Source of the DNA: Cyanidioschyzon merolae
Taxonomy: Eukaryota
Strand: one strand, 5' to 3'
DNA: 64,000 nucleotides
NCBI GenBank assembly: GCA_000091205.1
Contig: AP006491.2
The notes under the pieces are model-generated. The model was not told where the DNA came from. It worked only from the letters and a program-made list of their open reading frames with translations, and did no database searches. The position numbers and the translations under genes are program-made. Shown in pieces: positions 33,950 through 57,563 of the stretch (positions are counted from its first letter, which is position 1; each line of letters opens with the position of its first letter).

Positions 33950-34880
33950 CTCAAATGCGTTCCGCATCTCGGTGCGTGTCATTGAACGCTTTTCCGTAGT
34001 GTATAGCAGGAGCTGGAAATCACGATACAATATACCCCATATTTCGTGGACGAACGGCCTTTAGGATGTATTCTTTACCGAGGAGTGCAAGGAGGATAGC
34101 ATGCGTCCTTCAGGTCAGTTATTGCCCAGTACTCAGATGGTGAAGAACCCTGAAAGAAAGCAGGATACGCGCTCCGCGCCAAAAACCGATATGCTCACAG
34201 CGTGCTTGTGGTAAATAGTAGGAAACGAGTCGTTGATCACTGTGTAAGGTAAGCAAAGGCGGCGATAGCGGCCGCCACGTGCGTCTGTGTCGCTCAACAG
34301 CTTATTCGTGTGGTCCTGAAAACACTGGTATACAGGCGCAAAAACGTTGTAGTTTACGAACGGTCATCTTCCATCGAAATCGCACCTACAACGTTCCGAG
34401 AACGTTGCGATGAGTATGGAGCGCAGGGGCGTCGATATGTTTTTTTTCAGTCGATGAGGCCTTCTTCGGATGAATCGGTCGGGGTGTATATGGGTATTCG
34501 CGGGGTAGGCAGCCCGTTCTACGAAAGATCGAACCCGAGGTGAACGACGACATCATCATCATTATCTGCTCCAGCTGCAGTGGGTTCATTTGACGGCCTC
34601 AGTTTCGCTCGTCGAGAAGGCTGATACCACAGCATCGATCACTTTGTCGAATCATTAAAGACTTTTCCCTGGAGTCTCGCGACGTTCCTCAATTGGTAAA
34701 CGTGGTATTTCATCATTCCCGTTGCGTTCGAGCTTTTGCCGATTCTATCGCAGTAGAGCTGTTTATCATTCCTGCATGTTTTACTTGGTTCAAGCCCATT
34801 AAAAAGAATGTTTTCTATTGTGGAACTTGATGCTCGCTTCACCGGGCGAATTTGTCTGTTTGATAGAACGTTTACGCTGT
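33950..34880 (+). repeat. dispersed repeat family R1, copy A (~0.9 kb)
   Basis: Collinear ~70-75% identity with 43480..44360. Example blocks: tccttcaggtcag, gcgctccgcgccaaaaa, catcttccatcgaaatcgca, ctcagtttcgctcgt..ataccacagca..ttgtcgaatc. No long ORF. AT-richer than the flanking genes. Confidence 0.6.
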
Positions 34881-34919
34881 ACTTGGGATCTAGATTGCGC
34901 GATGGATATACGCTTTCGG

Positions 34920-35525
34920 GAAAGCGTCCATAACGCTCCACCTACCTCCAAGTTCCATTACTCATACCTCTTCTTGGATACACTGGTCACTTCGCACGTT
35001 CTTTCGCACTCCGAGTGCCCGCCCTGATCGTCCGCGATAGCGCTTATACCGCTGGTGCGGGTACAGCACAGAGTCAGAACGGCTTTGCCATACCACTGAG
35101 GATATCGGACCGAGGAATGCTTCACCTGACACGGAGTCGGGGCTCATAATCAATCTAGGAACGAGCAAGTTGTGCTGATAGCCTTACTGCTCGCAACAGC
35201 GCGATGCGATGTTACAGGAGCCCACTGTAACCAGGATGACCTCAGGACGCATTATACGCGCTCCGGGTCTAAGGATAAACTGCGTTTCGGACGAGTTTCT
35301 GCTCAGATCTCGCCACAGCACCCGCCAATCTGGAGAGCATAAAGCACGAACCTTGCAGACTCGTCCACATCGCGGGACCTTACGCCTAGAAGGTGAACTT
35401 TCGACCGTTCGGAAAGCTTTCCCCCTTCAATGCTTACCGTTCGAGGGGGAAAGAAATTGTTATCTCGTTGCTAGTTCGCGGCTCGTTTCTGTACTCTTTT
35501 TTCTGCGTTACGCTCGATCACAAAG
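34920..35525 (+). repeat. dispersed repeat family R3, copy E (~0.6 kb), ends ~10 bp before the ABCG start region
   Basis: Collinear with 52140..52730. Shared blocks: gtccgcgatagcgc.tata.cg, agcacga.cc.tggcagactcgt and a conserved hairpin (tcccccttcaatgcttaccgttcgaggggga, 35420..35450). The latter is matched by ttccccttttaatgtttaatgtagacggggaa at 52634..52665. Confidence 0.55.
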
Positions 35526-42754: not shown

Positions 42755-43138
42755 CTAGCTCCAAGCGCCGTTCCATGTGCTCAGCAAAATGGAAAACGTG
42801 TCGCGATCATACGGTAAATGAATACCGATGTGGAGGCGGATTCTAGTCGTTTTCGACCGGCCCATTGCTATCGACTTCAGCTTATCTTTGCATTCATCGA
42901 GTCTGAGAGGTTGCCCCACAAAGTTCGCTCGTGTTTGTTCCTCGGGCCTCGTCTTGAACACCGCACATCTCCTGGTATTGATGGTAGGGTTAAAGTCTTG
43001 GTTTACGAACTGCATGCATTCAATGACGCTTATTGATCGCACCGGTGCAAAGAGTCCTCGAACCGGTATCCTCTGTGCCACGACACTCTCGTTATTGTCC
43101 CGTCGGCAAAGCACCTCTTCTCGCGTATCTCCCCTCAT
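42755..43138 (-). pseudogene. degenerate fragment of a Fanzor/TnpB-like RuvC nuclease gene (second copy)
   Basis: The translation ...IECMQFVNQDFNPTINTRRCAVFKTRPEEQTRANFVGQPLRLDECKDKLKS... aligns with the RuvC-III region of the 55135..56133 ORF (EFVNRDFNAVINLRRCAVLEKRSPDSTRGNFVGQPIQVELYEKKLEA). The catalytic R-D is changed to Q-D. The upstream parts of the gene are missing or unrecognisable. Confidence 0.55.
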
Positions 43139-44360: not shown

Positions 44361-44849
44361 CAGTGAAACCGGTGCATTTTTTCGTCTTTCTTATGCAAAT
44401 CCTAGTCCCTCCGTGTAGGTCCTCACACAACGGCATCAACAATTGCTTTCATTTTAAAAAATAAGGAATGAGCATGAATGCACAATTCAGGAGATCGGAA
44501 TGCAGAAAAGCCAGCGGAGCGCTGACAGAGCAGCAAATGATACTGAGAGCGCGAGTTCGAGGACTCCTTGCACTAATGAGTTCAGAAAACGCCTAGAAAT
44601 GGAGGGAGGTAGCGAACCGAGACTTTAACACCGCCACTAATATCAGGACATGTGCGATGCTGACGACGATACCCGAGATGCTGAGGCGATCTAGTTTTGT
44701 GAGACAGCCTCTCAGGGTTAGAGCGTACAAGGAGAAGCGAAAACCGATAGCAAGCGGCTGGTCAAGAAACGTCGGGAGGCACCTGCGAGTGGGTAGATAT
44801 ACTTACTCTCTATCATTGTGAAGCGTTTTTTTGTTTCACTGACGATCTC

Positions 44850-51378: not shown

Positions 51379-52139
51379 CCATGCGCAGGGGACGACCCTT
51401 TGCTGTGCTGCTGCGCGGTTTTGGTCCCCGCCTGCACGCTACCGTCTCTTACGTCCAGACATTTGCTTGCGCTCGAGAGCACTGTGAACCAGTTACTATA
51501 AACGCGCACATGGAACGAGTTCCAAGCGCCGGTGCAGCTCGCCTTGTCGTAGACACAGATGAGCGCTGGAGCGTACAGCGCTCGGTGGTACCTAGCGGCG
51601 TCGGTGGCGGCGGTGATGAAGCGTCTGAGACAGGCGTCGATGGCCGTCCAGTGACGGGTGTCAAATTTGATCTAAAACTGGAATGAGTGTTCAAGATTCA
51701 AAGGTTGCCGTTGCGGCAGCGGTGCCAGGCTGCTCTCTCGCAGGGATACTATTTACGTAGCTACGATCAATATCCAGAGCTGCATCTAGGATGCCTCCGA
51801 ACAGGCTCGCTTTGATCATATGTGGACCGTTTCGACGGGAACGCTTTCGACAGCACCACACGGACCTGGAAGGTCGTTCACCTATCTGTTGAGAAAAAGC
51901 GCATATACGGCACATGAACTGGCTGGTCCACGGACACGTCAGTGACAACTCATTTTCGCAATGCGTTGTGATATATCGAGTGAACCGTCGGAAAAACGTC
52001 TTTACCACTGAACGAGTTGAGTATACCTGACTAGCGGCGCGCGTGAAGGACACACTCGATTCCTTTTCGTTGGACGAAACGTTGACCCACAGAGCAGCAA
52101 TCCCTGAGAGCGTGCTCGGTAACCGCGCGTTGTGGGGTT

Positions 52140-52730
52140 TCCATCGTTCCGCGCCCTCCTCGCAAGTTCCGCTTCCCATACGTTCCCTCGGAGGTACCGA
52201 TTATTTTCAAGTTCGACCGTGTGCCGACTGCCCGTCGCGAGCGTCCGCGATAGCGCCTATAGCGGCGGCGCGGTCGTAGCATAGACAGAGAGAACCGACA
52301 TGCCATACCAGAGAGCGCATCGACTCGAGGAATGTCACGGCTGAGTCACGGTCGAGGTTCATGATCATTCTGGGAGCCTGCAAGCTGCGCTGGCAGACCT
52401 ACTGCCTGCGACAGCGCGAATCGATATCCTAGGAGTCCACTGCGACCAGGGCGACGCCCAGATGCAGCTTAACTGTCCCTAGTCCCAGAATGAATTGCTT
52501 TGTGGACGAGTAGCACAGGTTTCTTTCAAGAACGCGCCGCTGGGAGGGGCATGAAGCACGAGCCTGGCAGACTCGTTCGGCTCGCGCTACTTTCCGCCTA
52601 GACGTTAAACTTTCGGAAATACGGAAAAAATTTTCCCCTTTTAATGTTTAATGTAGACGGGGAAAGAAATCGATAGCTCGTTGCTCGTGACTCGTGAGTC
52701 TCTTTCCTTTTTTTTCTAAATAGCGCGGTT
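52140..52730 (+). repeat. dispersed repeat family R3, copy F (immediately 5' of the Fanzor-like element)
   Basis: See the R3 copy E evidence. Confidence 0.55.
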
Positions 52731-53355
52731 GAGACGCGCAATTCAGAGATCTGGCAGTCATGAGATATGACGCGCTTGTCGCCGTTGAAGGGAGACACGA
52801 TCCAAACCTTTATGATCCAGCAGTAAAGTAAAAGTTCTATTTCCGTTGAAGTCGTAGCAAACTGCAGTTTTCAGTTGAATCGTGTTTCAACCCTCAAATA
52901 AGTGTATTCAAGTCCTTTTTCGCGGTTTATAGGAGAAGCGTTCAAAGAGCGCCCTTTTTCAAAAAAAATAAAAAAGGAAATGTTATCAAAAACCAAGTCG
53001 ACGATCCTGGAGGCCAAGTGTCGCTGGCTGCCAGAAAAAACAAAAAACAGTACCGAGTCCAGAAGAAAAGAAAGAGAAGAAGGACCGAAAGGAGGGAGGT
53101 CCTACGTCGAAGGCTGCAAGAAAGACCACACTACAACGAACTGGTTATGAAAGCCTGTCTTCTTGAACAGATCAAGGTTCCGTGCAAGAAAAAGTTACGA
53201 GAGTCCATTCGAAACCGTTTTGAGCCGAACTCCATGACTATAATACAGGTGTCGTCAGGACTAATGCATTTGGCGGGGGAGATGTATCGCGAAGTGACGC
53301 ACATGGAAACGGTCCAGCTTCCGAACGAGTTTTCGACGAGACCTTTATTCGTCAC

Positions 53356-56133
53356 ATGACGATTGGTACAGCGGAAGCGCGGAGGGAAAATGAACGCGTG
53401 CACGTCCTGCACGAAAAACACCTCTTTTACAGCTTCGAGGGTACTCGGTATACAGGTGACGCGGATATTTACATGTACGGGGCGATGAAGTACCTGACGA
53501 ACCTGAAGAACCATGTGACGATGAACCTCGAACGTTTCATGATACGCGCCGTGTTTGCGCTGTACCCGGGAATCTCACGCAAGGGGATATGGGCGATTAT
53601 CAATGGCGCCACGAACGATCGCAGGCATGAAGATGAGGTCGAATTTGTCGAGAAGAAGGCGTCAAACGAGAGCACGAATGAAGCTTCTGTAATCCGTGCG
53701 GCTATGCAAGAGCACGGCGCAGTCATGGGGCTACCGAATCCAACAGAAAAGATGTCAGAGTTAAAAAAAGATAAGGAAAGGTACTATCGCCTCATCCTGC
53801 GCTATTTTGTGTTTCTGAATCGTGAACTCGAACGCAAGGCGGAGATGAAGCTGAGTGAAGAGACAAATGAAGAGTGGGAGAGACGGAAGGCTTTCCTAAT
53901 GGGGAAGCAGTTAAACGTGGTTCCGTTGTGCAACATCAAGTAGTATTTTGTGAGTATCGATTCAGGCGTCCTTTACGGCATCATGAAGGAGATCAGTCCG
54001 GGGTTCAATGTTAGCAGGGAGGACTTCATCGGTGAAAACCGGGAGACGTACTGGAAGAGTATCTTCGATTTCAAACGTCTCAAAGTCAGCAAACAAAAGT
54101 TATTCACTGGGATGATCGAAACCGATGGCGTAGCCATGTGTGCACACTATCGGCGGTTGAAGAAAGAGTGTCCAGTTCCACCCTCGGCTGCACCCGTGAC
54201 GAAGGATGAAGAAAACAAAGAAGAGGATCCTGCGATGCAGGAGGTGGAGGATAACGACTTTGTCGTTGACATTACGAAGGATGAAGATGAGAAGACGGCG
54301 GATCCTGCGACGCAGGAGGTGCAGGATAACGGCTTTATCATTGGCGCGGCGAAGCATGAAGAAAACAAAGAAGAGGATCCTGCGACTCAGGAGGTAGAGA
54401 ATAACGACCTTGTTGTTGACATTACGAAGGATGAAGATGAGAAGACGGCGGATCCTGCGACGCAGGAGGTGCAGGATAACGGCTTTATCATTGGCGCGGC
54501 GAAGCATGAAGAAAACAAAGAAGAGGATCCTGCGACTCAGGAGGTAGAGAATAACGACCTTGTTGTTGACATTACGAAGGATGAAGATGAGAAGACGGCG
54601 GATCCTGCGACGCAGGAGGTGCAGGATAACGGCTTTATCATTGGCGCGGCGAAGCATGAAGAAAACAAAGAAGAGGATCCTGCGACTCAGGAGGTAGAGA
54701 ATAACGACCTTGTTGTTGACATTACGAAGGATGAAGATGAGAAGACGGCGGATCCTGCGACGCAGGAGGTGCAGGATAACGGCTTTATCATTGGCGCGGC
54801 GAAGCATGAAGAAAACAAAGAAGAGGATCCTGCGACTCAGGAGGTAGAGAATAACGACCTTGTTGTTGACATTACGAAGGATGAAGATGAGAAGACGGCG
54901 GATCCTGTGATGCAGGAGGTGCAAGATAACGACCTTGTCGTTGACGCGACGAAGCATGAAGAAAACAAAGAAGAGGATCCTGCGACTCAGGAGGTAGAGA
55001 ATAACGACCTTGTTGTTGACATTACGAAGGATGAAGATGAGAAGACGGCGGATCCTGTGATGCAGGAGGTGCAAGATAACGACCTTGTCGTTGACGCGAC
55101 GAAGCATTAAGAAAACAAGAAGGCGGATCCTGCGATGCAGAATGTGCAGGATAACGACTTTGTCGTTGGCGCGGACCCTGGGAATACGAATATCATAACC
55201 ATCGCTGTACCCAAGCGTGCGGAAGATGGTACTGAAGGTAATTTACGTCAGAAAGACATGCGTCTTTTGAGATTCTCGAGGGCAAGATATTACCGAGAAT
55301 CCGGTATAATGAATGCGAGGAAGAAAATCGAGACTTGGAATTCAGGAATGAAAGAGCGCCTGGAAGCTTTGAGCGAGGTGACGAGCCGCGGAGCGGATTA
55401 TGAAGCTTTTCGGAGATTCATGGAAGTTCGTGTTGCCCATTGGGATGCGCTGTGGAAGGAGTATACAAAGCCCAGTTGGGCTCGTCTGCGAATGAATCTG
55501 TACGGTGTGAAGCAGCGGGCGTTTGCGAATTTTTTCAATCAGTTGAGCGCCCTGAAGGAGGATGAAAGTCAGAGGCTCGTAGTAGCATACGGAGCAGGGC
55601 GATGGAAGACCCAAAAAGGGACTACGCCAGCTCCAACGACAAGAACGTATAAGGAGTGCGCACGGCGTTTTGCCTCGATACCTATAGACGAGTTTCAAAC
55701 ATCGTATACACACCATGAACTGAGGTGCACACTCCAGAGGGCCGAGATGGAAAAGTGCCAGACGAACCCTGAGGATATGAAAAAGTACGGACCGCTGACG
55801 GAAGAGCAAATGGAAAGGAGGACGAAAGTTCGAAGATTATTTGTATTAGTAAGTACAACCGATGACGGCAAGAAACGCATGGAATTCGTGAACCGTGACT
55901 TTAACGCCGTTATCAATCTAAGGAGATGTGCGGTGCTGGAGAAAAGATCTCCAGATTCGACAAGAGGGAACTTTGTTGGACAACCTATCCAAGTCGAACT
56001 ATATGAGAAAAAGTTGGAAGCAGTAGTGAGTGGCTGGTCCATAGAGACGGGGAGGCGTCTGTACGTCAGTTGGAGACTTCTTGTCAAGGGCGGGTTTCTC
56101 GCCACTACTGTACACTGCTGTCGTTCGACTTAG
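53356..56133 (+). pseudogene. Fanzor/TnpB-like RNA-guided RuvC endonuclease gene (~920 codons in one frame) interrupted by two in-frame stops (TAG 53941, TAA 55108)
   Basis: Three consecutive track ORFs (53356..53943, 53950..55110, 55135..56133) are all in the same frame, each separated by a single stop. The last carries RuvC-I VGADPGNTNIITIAV (GxDPGxxN), the hallmark IPIDEFQTSYTHHELRC (vdEyyTSkxC, the RuvC-II region / start of a degenerate zinc ribbon) and RuvC-III EFVNRDFNAVINLRR (RDxNAAxNI). The TAA sits exactly where sister repeat units have GAA (..KHEENKEEDPA.. versus ..KH*ENKKADPA..), so it is a point nonsense mutation. Confidence 0.65.
54200..55180 (+). repeat. 150-bp tandem repeat x~6.5 inside the Fanzor-like ORF (50-aa acidic repeat)
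   Basis: attacgaaggatgaagatgagaagacggcg recurs at 54271, 54421, 54571, 54721, 54871 and 55021. The unit encodes TKDEDEKTADPATQEVQDNGFIIGAAKHEENKEEDPATQEVENNDLVVDI. The last unit runs directly into the RuvC-I strand QDNDFVVGADPG, so the array is a serial duplication of the segment just upstream of, and including the start of, RuvC-I. Confidence 0.85.
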
Positions 56134-56249
56134 AACGGCGGTGGTGGCTTGTCCATTAGCACGCGTCAACGCAGACTTAGGTGCCCGACGCTTCTTGGAT
56201 ACGCGCGCCGCCTGTAATGAACTGAGGAAACACCAGCAGCACTGGCGTC

Positions 56250-57563
56250 ATGCTTGAACGCGGTACGCTAGAAGCGGCGAAGACTGAAACGCCCGCCTCT
56301 CAAGCGGTTGTTTCGGATCACTCGGAAATAGATCGCGTCCGCGTAACGGTAACAAGCCGGGATCGACCGGGTATCACCGCAGCTATTACAGCTGTGGTGG
56401 CGCGATGCTCCTGTGAGATCCTCTCCGTGCGTCAAGTATGCGTGCGTCGACGTCTAACCTTGATGTTTGAGCTTCTAGTGAAGAACGCGTTTCCACAACA
56501 GTCTATCTTTCGTGAGCTTCTATTAGTCAGCAAGCGTATCGGAGTGTCCGTCGATTTCTCGCTACAGCCGTCAACAGAAATATCTTCCGCTGAGGCTTGC
56601 ATGCTGCAGCACGCGTCAGAGCAGTACGTCATTACCGCTATCGCGGCGGACTCGATTACTCCGGCGTTTCTCGCTGATCTTGGGCAGAAATTGCAAGAAC
56701 GGAACTTTGTTCTCGAGTCGGTGAACAAGTTGAGCCAGCATCGCCTCGGCTGCATTGAACTGGTGGTTTCATCCCCGGCGTCCTCGTCGTCCAGCGACAT
56801 TCAACAGTTTCGCTCGGAGATGTTTGTGCTTGGGCGCAAGTACGCGACCGATGTCGCCGTGCAAAAAGAGAGTCTCATCCGCAAAAGCAAACGCCTCGTG
56901 GTCATGGATATGGATAGCACGCTGATCCAACAGGAAGTGATTGATGAGCTCGCTCGCTATGCAGGCAAATTCGAGGCGGTGCAGGAAATCACGCACCGAG
57001 CCATGTGCGGGGAACTCGACTTTAGAACAAGTCTGTACAAGCGCGTGGAATGCTTGAAGGGAACGCCCGCCACCGTCTTTCAAAAGGTGATCGATCATCT
57101 GGTGTACACGCCTGGTGCGCATTTCCTGGCACATTCCTTGAAACGACTCGGGTACAAACTGGCAGTCATTTCCGGGGGCTTCGCTCCGATTGCCCAGCAC
57201 GTGCGACAGACGCTCGGACTTGATTATGCGTACGCGAACCAGCTGGAAGTTGGTCCGGACGGGTGTTTTACGGGCCGAACGGTGGGCCCCATTGTCGACG
57301 GCCAACGCAAGGCAGACCTCTTGATGGCCATCGCCCAACAGGAGCAGATCGACCTCGAGCAGACAATCTGCATTGGTGATGGAGCCAACGATTTGCCAAT
57401 GTTATCGATGGCGGGTCTCGGCATCGCCTTCAATGCAAAGCCTGCTGTCCAGGAGCGGGCAGCTTTTCGTCTCAATCGCCAAAGCCTCGACTCTGTCCTC
57501 TATTTTCTCGGTATTCCAGAATCTGAGCAGATTCAGTTACGAGAGCACAACGATGCATCGTAG
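56250..57563 (+). CDS. serB: phosphoserine phosphatase (SerB-type HAD hydrolase with N-terminal ACT-like domains)
   Basis: ATG 56250. HAD motifs: VVMDMDSTLIQQEVIDELA (DxDxT), ISGGF (motif II region) and ICIGDGANDLPMLSMAGLGIAFNAKP (motif IV). The N-terminal ~200 aa have ACT-like RVRVTVTSRDRPGITAAITAVV. Confidence 0.9.
   Translation: MLERGTLEAAKTETPASQAVVSDHSEIDRVRVTVTSRDRPGITAAITAVVARCSCEILSVRQVCVRRRLTLMFELLVKNAFPQQSIFRELLLVSKRIGVSVDFSLQPSTEISSAEACMLQHASEQYVITAIAADSITPAFLADLGQKLQERNFVLESVNKLSQHRLGCIELVVSSPASSSSSDIQQFRSEMFVLGRKYATDVAVQKESLIRKSKRLVVMDMDSTLIQQEVIDELARYAGKFEAVQEITHRAMCGELDFRTSLYKRVECLKGTPATVFQKVIDHLVYTPGAHFLAHSLKRLGYKLAVISGGFAPIAQHVRQTLGLDYAYANQLEVGPDGCFTGRTVGPIVDGQRKADLLMAIAQQEQIDLEQTICIGDGANDLPMLSMAGLGIAFNAKPAVQERAAFRLNRQSLDSVLYFLGIPESEQIQLREHNDAS

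Follow-up and report, generated by a model that had tools for sequence, protein, structure and literature searches.

A degenerate Fanzor1 transposon copy, very probably of the CMe-1A family, lies upstream of serB in Cyanidioschyzon merolae

We analysed a stretch of 64,000 nucleotides of Cyanidioschyzon merolae DNA (contig AP006491.2, assembly GCA_000091205.1), here called the window; all coordinates refer to it. Upstream of serB, whose product is identical to BAM79981.1 of C. merolae 10D, lies a region with a GC content of 0.49, compared with 0.54-0.57 in its surroundings, and a strong purine skew. A preliminary description of this DNA had called the region an AT-rich insertion. This holds in so far as its GC is lower than that of the surroundings; the enrichment is relative only. 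The following features were located.

52059..52720, plus strand: 5' module (about 660 bp); nhmmer/alignment boundary at ~52059; fits the description of TE-N2_CMe
52723..52739, plus strand: hairpin GCGCG-N7-CGCGC with which the core opens; all subfamilies converge here, and the hairpin exists in two sequence versions
52850..53333, plus strand: N-terminal coding remnant, in a different frame from ORF1-3; tblastn with P0150/P0151 matches frame 2
53330..53333, plus strand: 1-bp deletion in a T-run; frameshift at which tblastn changes frame
53356..53943, plus strand: ORF1, N-terminal (REC/WED-side) part of a Fanzor1 protein; homologues P0141 and P0313 run on into ORF2/ORF3
53944..53946, plus strand: in-frame TAG; Ser in family proteins (NIKSHF)
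53950..55107 (TAA to 55110), plus strand: ORF2, conserved FTGMIETDG segment, then an expanded acidic 25-aa repeat linker
54193..55167, plus strand: tandem repeat (array of 75/150-bp units spanning 54198-55168), 13 x 75 bp or 6.5 x 150 bp, 96% identity; linker just N-terminal of RuvC-I
55108..55110, plus strand: in-frame TAA; GAA in all six sister 150-bp units
55135..56133, plus strand: ORF3, RuvC nuclease half
55174-55176, plus strand: D14 of ORF3, RuvC-I Asp; profile column of SpuFz1 D383
55690-55692, plus strand: E186 of ORF3, RuvC-II Glu; profile column of SpuFz1 E541
55897-55899, plus strand: D255 of ORF3, RuvC-III Asp; profile column of SpuFz1 D606
56030..56142, plus strand: conserved 3' end; candidate for an omegaRNA scaffold, for the right end of the transposon, or for both
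56086..56088, plus strand: AAG at the site of the family's normal stop, which is TAG or TAA in 25 of 36 copies
56143..56162, plus strand: host DNA outside the element, a possible guide source should an omegaRNA arise from the 3' end (by analogy with SpuFz1)
56250..57563, plus strand: serB, host phosphoserine phosphatase with ACT and HAD domains (Pfam); outside the element

The three ORFs were recovered exactly as described before, i.e. at 53356-53943, 53950-55110 and 55135-56133, all in the same frame and parted only by single stops, a TAG (53944-53946) and a TAA (55108-55110). The proposal that they constitute one gene was borne out. In the homologues P0141 (716 aa) and P0313 (752 aa) a single ORF spans all three, and in P0313 no stop breaks it over at least 752 aa. 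In metagenomes, gene callers have annotated numerous short proteins, each limited to a single part, as might be expected if the three were separate genes with independent functions. However, tblastn crossed both stops in one frame without a break and the alignment to solved Fanzor1 proteins spanned the ORF2/ORF3 junction. Together with the joined ORFs of P0141 and P0313 this refuted the separate-genes reading, to which we assign practically no probability.

Judged from sequence profiles and a predicted fold, the gene is of the Fanzor1 type, the eukaryotic kin of the RNA-guided nucleases TnpB and Cas12 of bacteria, in agreement with the preliminary description. A family profile retrieved 1348 relatives. 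The broad profile A3, which was built from the wider family and has ORF3 as its first row, matched PpFz1 from Parasitella (9cf0; E=5.4e-21, in two stretches), SpuFz1 from Spizellomyces (8gkh; E=3.8e-14) and GtFz1 (9cer; E=2e-7). The similarity to these bona fide Fanzor1 proteins covered the REC/WED part as well as the RuvC part. With the broad profile the ORF1 region was alignable to PpFz1, and in the profile alignment the FTGtieTDG segment of ORF2 aligned to PpFz1 and SpuFz1. Neither ORF3 alone (phmmer) nor the close-family profile had a match in the PDB; thus the link to Fanzor1 depends on the wider profile. A Pfam search with the three ORFs and full-length relatives returned no Fanzor/TnpB domain and only chance-level matches in the repeat region; one distant relative gave a weak TNB match (E=0.0023).

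The nuclease part was also modelled, as had been proposed. An AlphaFold model of ORF3 (pLDDT 86; residues 298-332 disordered) predicts a TnpB/Cas12-type RuvC fold and matched SpuFz1 (Foldseek E=1e-10) and Cas12/TnpB. With a shallow family alignment AlphaFold2 gave no usable model (pLDDT 34.6). The blocks GADPGNTN, IDEFQTSYTHHELRC and NRDFNAVINL occur in ORF3 in that order, and the earlier assignment of RuvC-I, -II and -III to a catalytic D, E, D triad was confirmed in that D14, E186 and D255 fall into the columns of D383, E541 and D606, the catalytic residues of SpuFz1 (PMC10432273). In A3 the three residues are invariant or nearly so. The variability at the three codon positions in the coding part of the family, 0.093/0.072/0.181, implies past purifying selection on the protein.

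The zinc ribbon had been described as degenerate, and correctly so. A C4 zinc finger between RuvC-II and RuvC-III is absent from ORF3; TSYTHHELRC...C and VRRLFVLVSTT stand where PpFz1 and SpuFz1 carry CxxC...C...C. In the C. merolae (CMe) family His193 stands in place of Cys1 and Leu/Val in place of Cys3, and the broad-clade consensus is likewise devoid of CxxC pairs. The Fanzor motif of 2013, D-X-[TS][TS]-X-X-[C4]-X-RD, includes the C4 zinc finger (PMC3627910). Because those who defined Fanzor nevertheless list C. merolae as a Fanzor1 carrier (PMC3627910), we regard the finger as typical rather than clade-defining.

The window copy is a pseudogene, unable to make a full Fanzor1 protein. An uninterrupted ORF with a start codon is not present at the locus: a frameshift at 53330, the TAG at 53944 and the TAA at 55108 interrupt it, and a usable start is missing. 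The preliminary description had seen no frameshifts. This is true for 53356-56133; however, the upstream coding part is joined via the 1-bp deletion at 53330-53333. Within GAGTTTTTCGA the window has TTTT and eight family copies have TTTTT, and at this site the family reads GAGTTTTTCGAC and the window GAGTTTTCGAC. The N-terminal remnant upstream of it (52850-53333) contains a basic, NLS-like stretch, KKRKRRRTERRE. Its sole in-frame ATG is at 53147, and none precedes the basic stretch; the remnant was also covered by a family-wide translation. The TAA indeed occupies the place where all six sister 150-bp units read GAA, as had been noted before. Because AAG stands for the normal stop at 56086-56088, the window ORF also extends 15 codons too far.

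The view that this is a very young pseudogene could not be maintained. The frameshift is a third lesion, an upstream ATG is lacking, and the insertion and the TAA are common to contigs of environmental strains, whose DNA shows 98.5-99% identity where aligned (the same TAA occurs in the orthologous contigs L001 and L002). The insertion is very probably old and fixed, about 105 bp upstream of serB. Expression by readthrough had been offered as an alternative; it found no support, and the frameshift speaks against it. In its full form, a functional Fanzor1 translated through the stop codons with the ribosome shifting frame at the T-run, it could draw on the fact that there are only three disabling lesions in ~3.3 kb, that the catalytic D, E, D are intact, and that third codon positions are over-represented among the differences from the family consensus (19/14/36). 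However, it would take independent readthrough at two stops, a shift of frame and initiation at a codon other than ATG, the linker is inflated to 13 repeats and the normal stop codon is mutated too. Moreover, most family copies are equally or more broken, a pattern expected of neutral decay. We consider continued production of the protein highly improbable and treat the coding part as dead.

The element belongs to a multi-copy mobile family: 242 proteins are close homologues, and genomic copies with common sharp boundaries lie at more than 80 loci. Homology to the repeat family stops at 56140-56148; therefore 56150-56250 is host DNA. The core common to all subfamilies begins at ~52721. The extent given earlier, 52730-56250, was close at the core start but too long on the right, and it omitted the 5' module from ~52059. 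Other subfamilies have different 5' modules, with a constant 3' end, and a solo copy of the 5' module of this element is located at 34848-35475 of the window. The other ORFs in the element had no Pfam match reaching the family threshold, and no transposase and no HUH/Rep was detected among them. The earlier conclusion, a pseudogene within a mobile-element insertion adjoining serB, stands.

Bao and Jurka described a Fanzor1 family in C. merolae, CMe-1A, with ~150 copies of ~80% identity to the consensus (Bao and Jurka, 2013; PMC3627910). It is ~3 kb long without terminal inverted repeats (Bao and Jurka, 2013, Mob DNA 4:12; PMC3627910) and was left unclassified; TE-N2_CMe corresponds to its 5' 635 bp (PMC3627910). 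Very probably, 52059-56145 (approximate bounds) is one degenerate copy of this non-autonomous CMe-1A, with Fanzor1 as its sole gene, in an old, fixed insertion. The assignment is a fit to the published description, together with the single Fanzor1 family listed for C. merolae. Organism, multiple copies diverged by ~20%, a single Fanzor1 ORF and a length of ~3 kb plus repeats agree, as do the absence of terminal inverted repeats and the 5' ~635 bp that also exists as a separate short element. In contrast to CMe-1A the window copy is a pseudogene and longer (~4.09 kb), the latter due to its 13 linker repeats. Relatives have ~3-6 repeat units, and the array of the window copy very probably expanded after insertion. 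The paper which first described Fanzor includes C. merolae in its table of Fanzor-bearing species (PMC3627910). Thus the call of a Fanzor1 in C. merolae is right, but it has been known since 2013, and the implied novelty of an unusual host lineage falls away.

An intact member comprises, from N to C, the basic stretch, REC/WED, the acidic 25-aa repeat linker and the RuvC half with its D-E-D. Among 84 loci examined none had an ORF of more than 594 aa with both RuvC-I and RuvC-III motifs; the 752-aa ORF of P0313 came from the protein database and occurs in several hot-spring metagenome samples.

The conserved 3' end contains hairpins at 56089-56103 and 56117-56142, and conservation halts directly after GAACGGCG(T/G)T. 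Its variability is without codon periodicity (0.122/0.131/0.124 vs the values of the coding part given above). It is plausible that this conserved non-coding tail with its terminal hairpin is an omegaRNA scaffold. The hand-drawn hairpins had no covariation above shuffles, RNAalifold, applied to the 3'-terminal 218 nt in 36 copies, produced no meaningful consensus, the z-scores of the folds gave a weak, mixed signal (-0.6 to -2.7, in one case +0.1) and an Rfam search gave a chance-level miRNA match only. The preliminary description had placed the omegaRNA at 56000-56250, abutting serB. This was not supported: the element ends ~105 bp before the serB ATG. Any scaffold would sit at ~56030-56142 with the guide just beyond; in SpuFz1 the guide reaches 14-15 nt past the conserved scaffold (PMC10432273). 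Following the characterised Fanzor1 proteins, an intact protein would take up a transcript of the conserved 3' end as its omegaRNA; the 3' extension of this RNA, derived from flanking DNA, would guide cleavage of matching DNA beside a short adjacent motif. Such cleavage would aid persistence or spread of the element.

Two further readings concern this 3' end. Possibly the coding part is dead and the 3' end is still transcribed as a candidate omegaRNA, acting in trans for intact Fanzor1 proteins of other copies. The tail is well kept in the window copy (nhmmer E=1e-28), the family's terminal hairpin is present, and the tail is more conserved than third codon positions while lacking codon periodicity; SpuFz1 ghost elements which retain the ends only are known (PMC10432273). 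On the other hand, covariation is absent from the tail and within the window no intact copy of strain 10D was shown, and we consider a role in trans rather unlikely, at about one chance in a few. Slightly less unlikely, but still the lesser possibility, the hairpins at the 5' start of the core and at the 3' end are recognition ends for a transposase, as in IS200/IS605 or Helitron2, and not an RNA scaffold. Hairpins at both ends in the absence of terminal inverted repeats, and 5' modules that vary by subfamily next to a constant 3' end, fit such a role, as does the precedent of the Chlamydomonas Helitron2 elements, in which Fanzor1 is found between hairpins at both ends (PMC3627910). In the element, however, no HUH/Rep transposase was detected. 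Also, the two roles are compatible, since the IS200/IS605 right end serves both.

Compared with SpuFz1 (8GKH), PpFz1 (9CF0) and GtFz1 (9CER) the family has the same domain order and RuvC fold at an identity of only 10-19%. Shared with Fanzor1 nucleases are D-P at RuvC-I, DE(F/Y)xTS at RuvC-II, NRD at RuvC-III, the FTG-x-ETDG segment ahead of the linker and a conserved 3' end overlapping and downstream of the stop codon. Unlike these three proteins the CMe family lacks the CCCC zinc finger of the NUC/TNB domain, and the element of the window has a large acidic tandem-repeat linker. The 30-nt inverted repeats which flank the SpuFz1 locus are also missing. An IS200/IS605 TnpB was considered and rejected: neither ORF3 nor full-length relatives match OrfB_IS605 or Cas12f1-like_TNB in Pfam, and the element has no second gene. 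Compared with ISDra2 TnpB (8H1J) there is no TnpA and no zinc finger, and the protein is much larger with an NLS-like N-terminus. The Chlamydomonas Helitron2 elements CRe-1, -2 and -3 are similar in that they are non-autonomous, carry Fanzor1 as cargo and have hairpins at both ends. Helitron termini are 5'-TC ... CTRR-3'.

The locus itself is of little import: a housekeeping gene is preceded by a fixed, dead transposon whose family was published in 2013. Modest interest remains in the family since the zinc finger of the solved Fanzor1 structures is missing throughout the clade and apparently intact copies are present in environmental relatives. Tentatively, and at somewhat less than even chances, the CMe-1 lineage with its more than 1000 metagenomic relatives may represent a Fanzor1 clade which lost the zinc finger but stayed active. 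In that case P0313 (752 aa) and other intact members would be RNA-guided nucleases whose omegaRNA derives from the 3' tail, ~110 nt long and ending in a hairpin, and their source would be a eukaryote known as a thermoacidophile. The hairpin-bounded core with swappable 5' modules would then point to IS200/IS605- or Helitron2-like movement. Among the characterised Fanzors considered here, SpuFz1, PpFz1, GtFz1 and the Fz2 proteins, none is from a red alga or from a heat- and acid-adapted eukaryote. An intact copy plus the 3' tail would be a reasonable candidate for a heat-tolerant compact nuclease. As a minor observation, the 5' flanks of the copies were weakly enriched for GCG[CT]T (8 of 28, compared with 4 of 56 control windows).

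The Fanzor1 gene beside serB belongs to a dead copy of a transposon family that is already published. The paper naming Fanzor lists Cyanidioschyzon merolae with one Fanzor1 family, CMe-1A (Bao and Jurka, 2013; PMC3627910). It comprises about 150 copies with about 80% identity each to a consensus of about 3 kb that has no terminal inverted repeats; a target-site duplication was undetermined there, and an intact copy was reported in strain 10D itself. All findings on the window element fit this description, and the novelty claimed in the preliminary description is not supported. The features are (window coordinates):

34848-35475, + strand: solo copy of the 5' module, about 630 bp, 69% identical to 52224-52688
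from about 52059: 5' module of the window copy
52723-52739: hairpin at the start of the shared core
about 52850-53333: upstream gene remnant, in another frame than ORF1-3 (tblastn)
53330-53333: 1-bp deletion in a T-run, joining the upstream frame to the ORF1 frame
53356-53943: ORF1
53944: TAG, in-frame stop, ORF1/ORF2 break
53950-55110: ORF2, same frame as ORF1
54198-55168 (54193-55167 for the 13 units): tandem repeat array, period 75/150 bp
55108: TAA, in-frame stop, ORF2/ORF3 break
55135-56133: ORF3, same frame as ORF1 and ORF2
56086-56088: AAG at the family's usual stop position
56117-56142: 10-bp hairpin closing the 3' end
56250-57563: serB, phosphoserine phosphatase with ACT and HAD domains (Pfam matches)

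The GC content of 53-56 kb is 0.49 versus 0.54-0.57 on both flanks, with a strong purine skew. The 55% GC and the long intron-free ORFs of the window fit the C. merolae genome. The serB product matches BAM79981.1 / XP_005536267.1 of strain 10D exactly, and the window is therefore nuclear DNA of this red alga.

ORF3 has 242 close homologues, nearly all from JGI metagenomes. Neither ORF3 alone nor the close-family profile matched anything in Pfam or PDB. When the family profile was used in an exhaustive HMM search, 1348 relatives emerged, many of 600-700 aa. A broad profile, i.e. an alignment of 96 sequences with ORF3 as row one, matched three solved Fanzor1 proteins and practically nothing else: those of Parasitella parasitica (PpFz1, 9CF0; E=5.4e-21, two stretches), Spizellomyces punctatus (SpuFz1, 8GKH; E=3.8e-14) and Guillardia theta (9CER; E=2e-7). 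The original identification as Fanzor was therefore correct; the Pfam part of the profile search proposed with it returned nothing, and the positive result came from matching the broad profile to solved Fanzor1 structures. Precomputed annotation assigns Pfam PF26935.1 to the homologues P0003, P0006 and P0313, to many other family members and to distant relatives.

The profile alignment takes in the FTG-x-ETDG segment of ORF2 and the three RuvC blocks, GADPGNTN, IDEFQTSYTHHELRC and NRDFNAVINL, all located in ORF3 as first described. Its columns for D, E and D correspond to residues 777, 935 and 1000 of 8gkh_P, counted along the printed alignment; a 394-residue tag offset turns these into SpuFz1 D383, E541 and D606, which Saito et al. 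(2023; PMC10432273) name as metal-binding. D14, E186 and D255 of ORF3 occupy these columns and are invariant or nearly so among the 96 sequences. As judged from the alignment, the zinc finger is the one typical Fanzor1 feature that fails here. PpFz1 and SpuFz1 have CxxC...C...C, whereas in the CMe family those places are taken by H193/H194 and Leu/Val, which agrees with the degenerate zinc ribbon noted before. The broad-clade consensus also lacks the Cys pairs.

ORF1-3 are one gene, not three, because several homologues join the parts and tblastn with joined homologues crosses both stops without leaving the frame. P0141 (716 aa) and P0313 (752 aa) carry the N-terminal region, the repeats and the RuvC-III motif on single proteins. 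The only breaks between the three same-frame ORFs are the TAG and the TAA, as initially reported, and all six sister 150-bp repeat units indeed read GAA at the position of the TAA. The damage exceeds the preliminary account, in which no frameshifts were noted across about 2.8 kb: the gene extends upstream in another frame, and the T-run junction is GAGTTTTTCGA in eight family copies versus GAGTTTTCGA in the window. An ATG was sought in the upstream frame 5' of the basic stretch KKRKRRRTERRE and none is present; the earliest in-frame ATG is at 53147. At the 3' end the family's normal stop, TAG or TAA in 25/36 copies, is mutated to AAG, which extends ORF3 by 15 codons.

The locus had been considered either very recently inactivated or expressed by stop-codon readthrough. 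Expression would demand reading through two stops, shifting frame once and starting at a non-ATG codon, which argues against it. The same insertion is present at the same site in four metagenome contigs with an identical serB protein and 98.5-99% DNA identity; the two that extend to the TAA position both have TAA. Insertion and TAA are therefore older than the divergence between 10D and those strains. Divergence of the copy from the family majority consensus is 7.9% for the RuvC part and 10.4% for ORF1. These differences are third-position biased (19/14/36 and 13/11/36, respectively), and a large share of them therefore accumulated before selection on the lineage ceased. The copy is lightly decayed (three lesions in about 3.3 kb) but not very young.

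In the repeat array an acidic 25-aa unit occurs 13 times, versus about 3-6 in relatives, and the final unit leads straight into the RuvC-I strand. Because its 150-bp units are 96% identical among themselves, its expansion is recent, after the insertion. In metagenome assemblies the orthologous locus breaks within the array (contig ends of L001-L002).

Compared with 80 related loci, family homology ends sharply at 56140-56148, directly after ...CGTCGTTCGAC(T)T(T/-)(C/A)GAACGGCG(T/G)T. The core common to the copies begins at about 52721, close to the start first proposed, and is preceded by at least four different, unrelated 5' modules. The hairpin at this junction is kept in two versions, GCGCTC-N3-GAGCGC or, as in the window, GCGCG-N7-CGCGC. 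The solo 5' module agrees with what was published on the short element TE-N2_CMe. No other ORF of the element has a Pfam match at its family's threshold, and the element therefore is without its own transposase.

An omegaRNA had been placed at 56000-56250, abutting serB; this did not hold since host DNA occupies 56150-56250. A candidate omegaRNA scaffold is the conserved tail at about 56030-56142. Its nucleotides are conserved among copies although the stop-codon position differs, and more so than third codon positions. Codon-position variability is flat in the tail (0.122/0.131/0.124; RuvC part 0.093/0.072/0.181), the predicted ORF3 structure is disordered across the tail-encoded stretch, and the fold energy is -38.8 kcal/mol in sense versus -23.4 in antisense. 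The varying stop, flat variability, model disorder and strand-dependent folding point to a non-protein role. For the tail, RNAalifold gave no consensus structure, covariation in hand-drawn helices was no greater than in shuffles, fold z-scores were weak and an Rfam search of the tail returned nothing. It is equally possible that the 3' and core hairpins serve as ends recognised by a transposase, which is compatible with an omegaRNA role. The guide of the putative omegaRNA would be taken from the sequence beginning at about 56143; SpuFz1 uses a 75-nt scaffold and a 14-15-nt guide past the conserved region (PMC10432273).

Among 28 family copies (loci L005-L080; window flank 52040-52058), the final 18 nt of the 5' flank contain GCG[CT]T in 8/28 copies versus 4/56 control windows. 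This sequence is similar to the 3' terminus of the element itself, ACGGCGTT. The signal is weak and could reflect a target or TAM-like motif. About 20 nt past the usual 3' end, GTTTG(C/T)TTC(C/A)AGG(G/A)GTG, are common to the loci L029 (~1340), L046 (~514) and L051 (~7008), which suggests an extended-end subfamily or repeated insertion into another repeat.

Two diverged Fanzor C-terminus fragments, 42755-43138 (-) and 44489-44794 (+), lie head-to-head about 1.4 kb apart, with about 45-50% aa identity to the CMe family and NQDFNPTIN in one. Because neither has the canonical CMe 3' end, an older or a second Fanzor family may have left them as relics. In 84 fetched loci the longest ORF with both RuvC-I and RuvC-III motifs has 594 aa. 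In the protein database P0313 is an uninterrupted ORF with all three catalytic motifs and recurs across several samples, on long contigs. A deletion derivative from metagenomes (P0150, P0151, P0154), in which the REC part is joined directly to the post-RuvC-I region with loss of the first catalytic Asp, also recurs in several samples.
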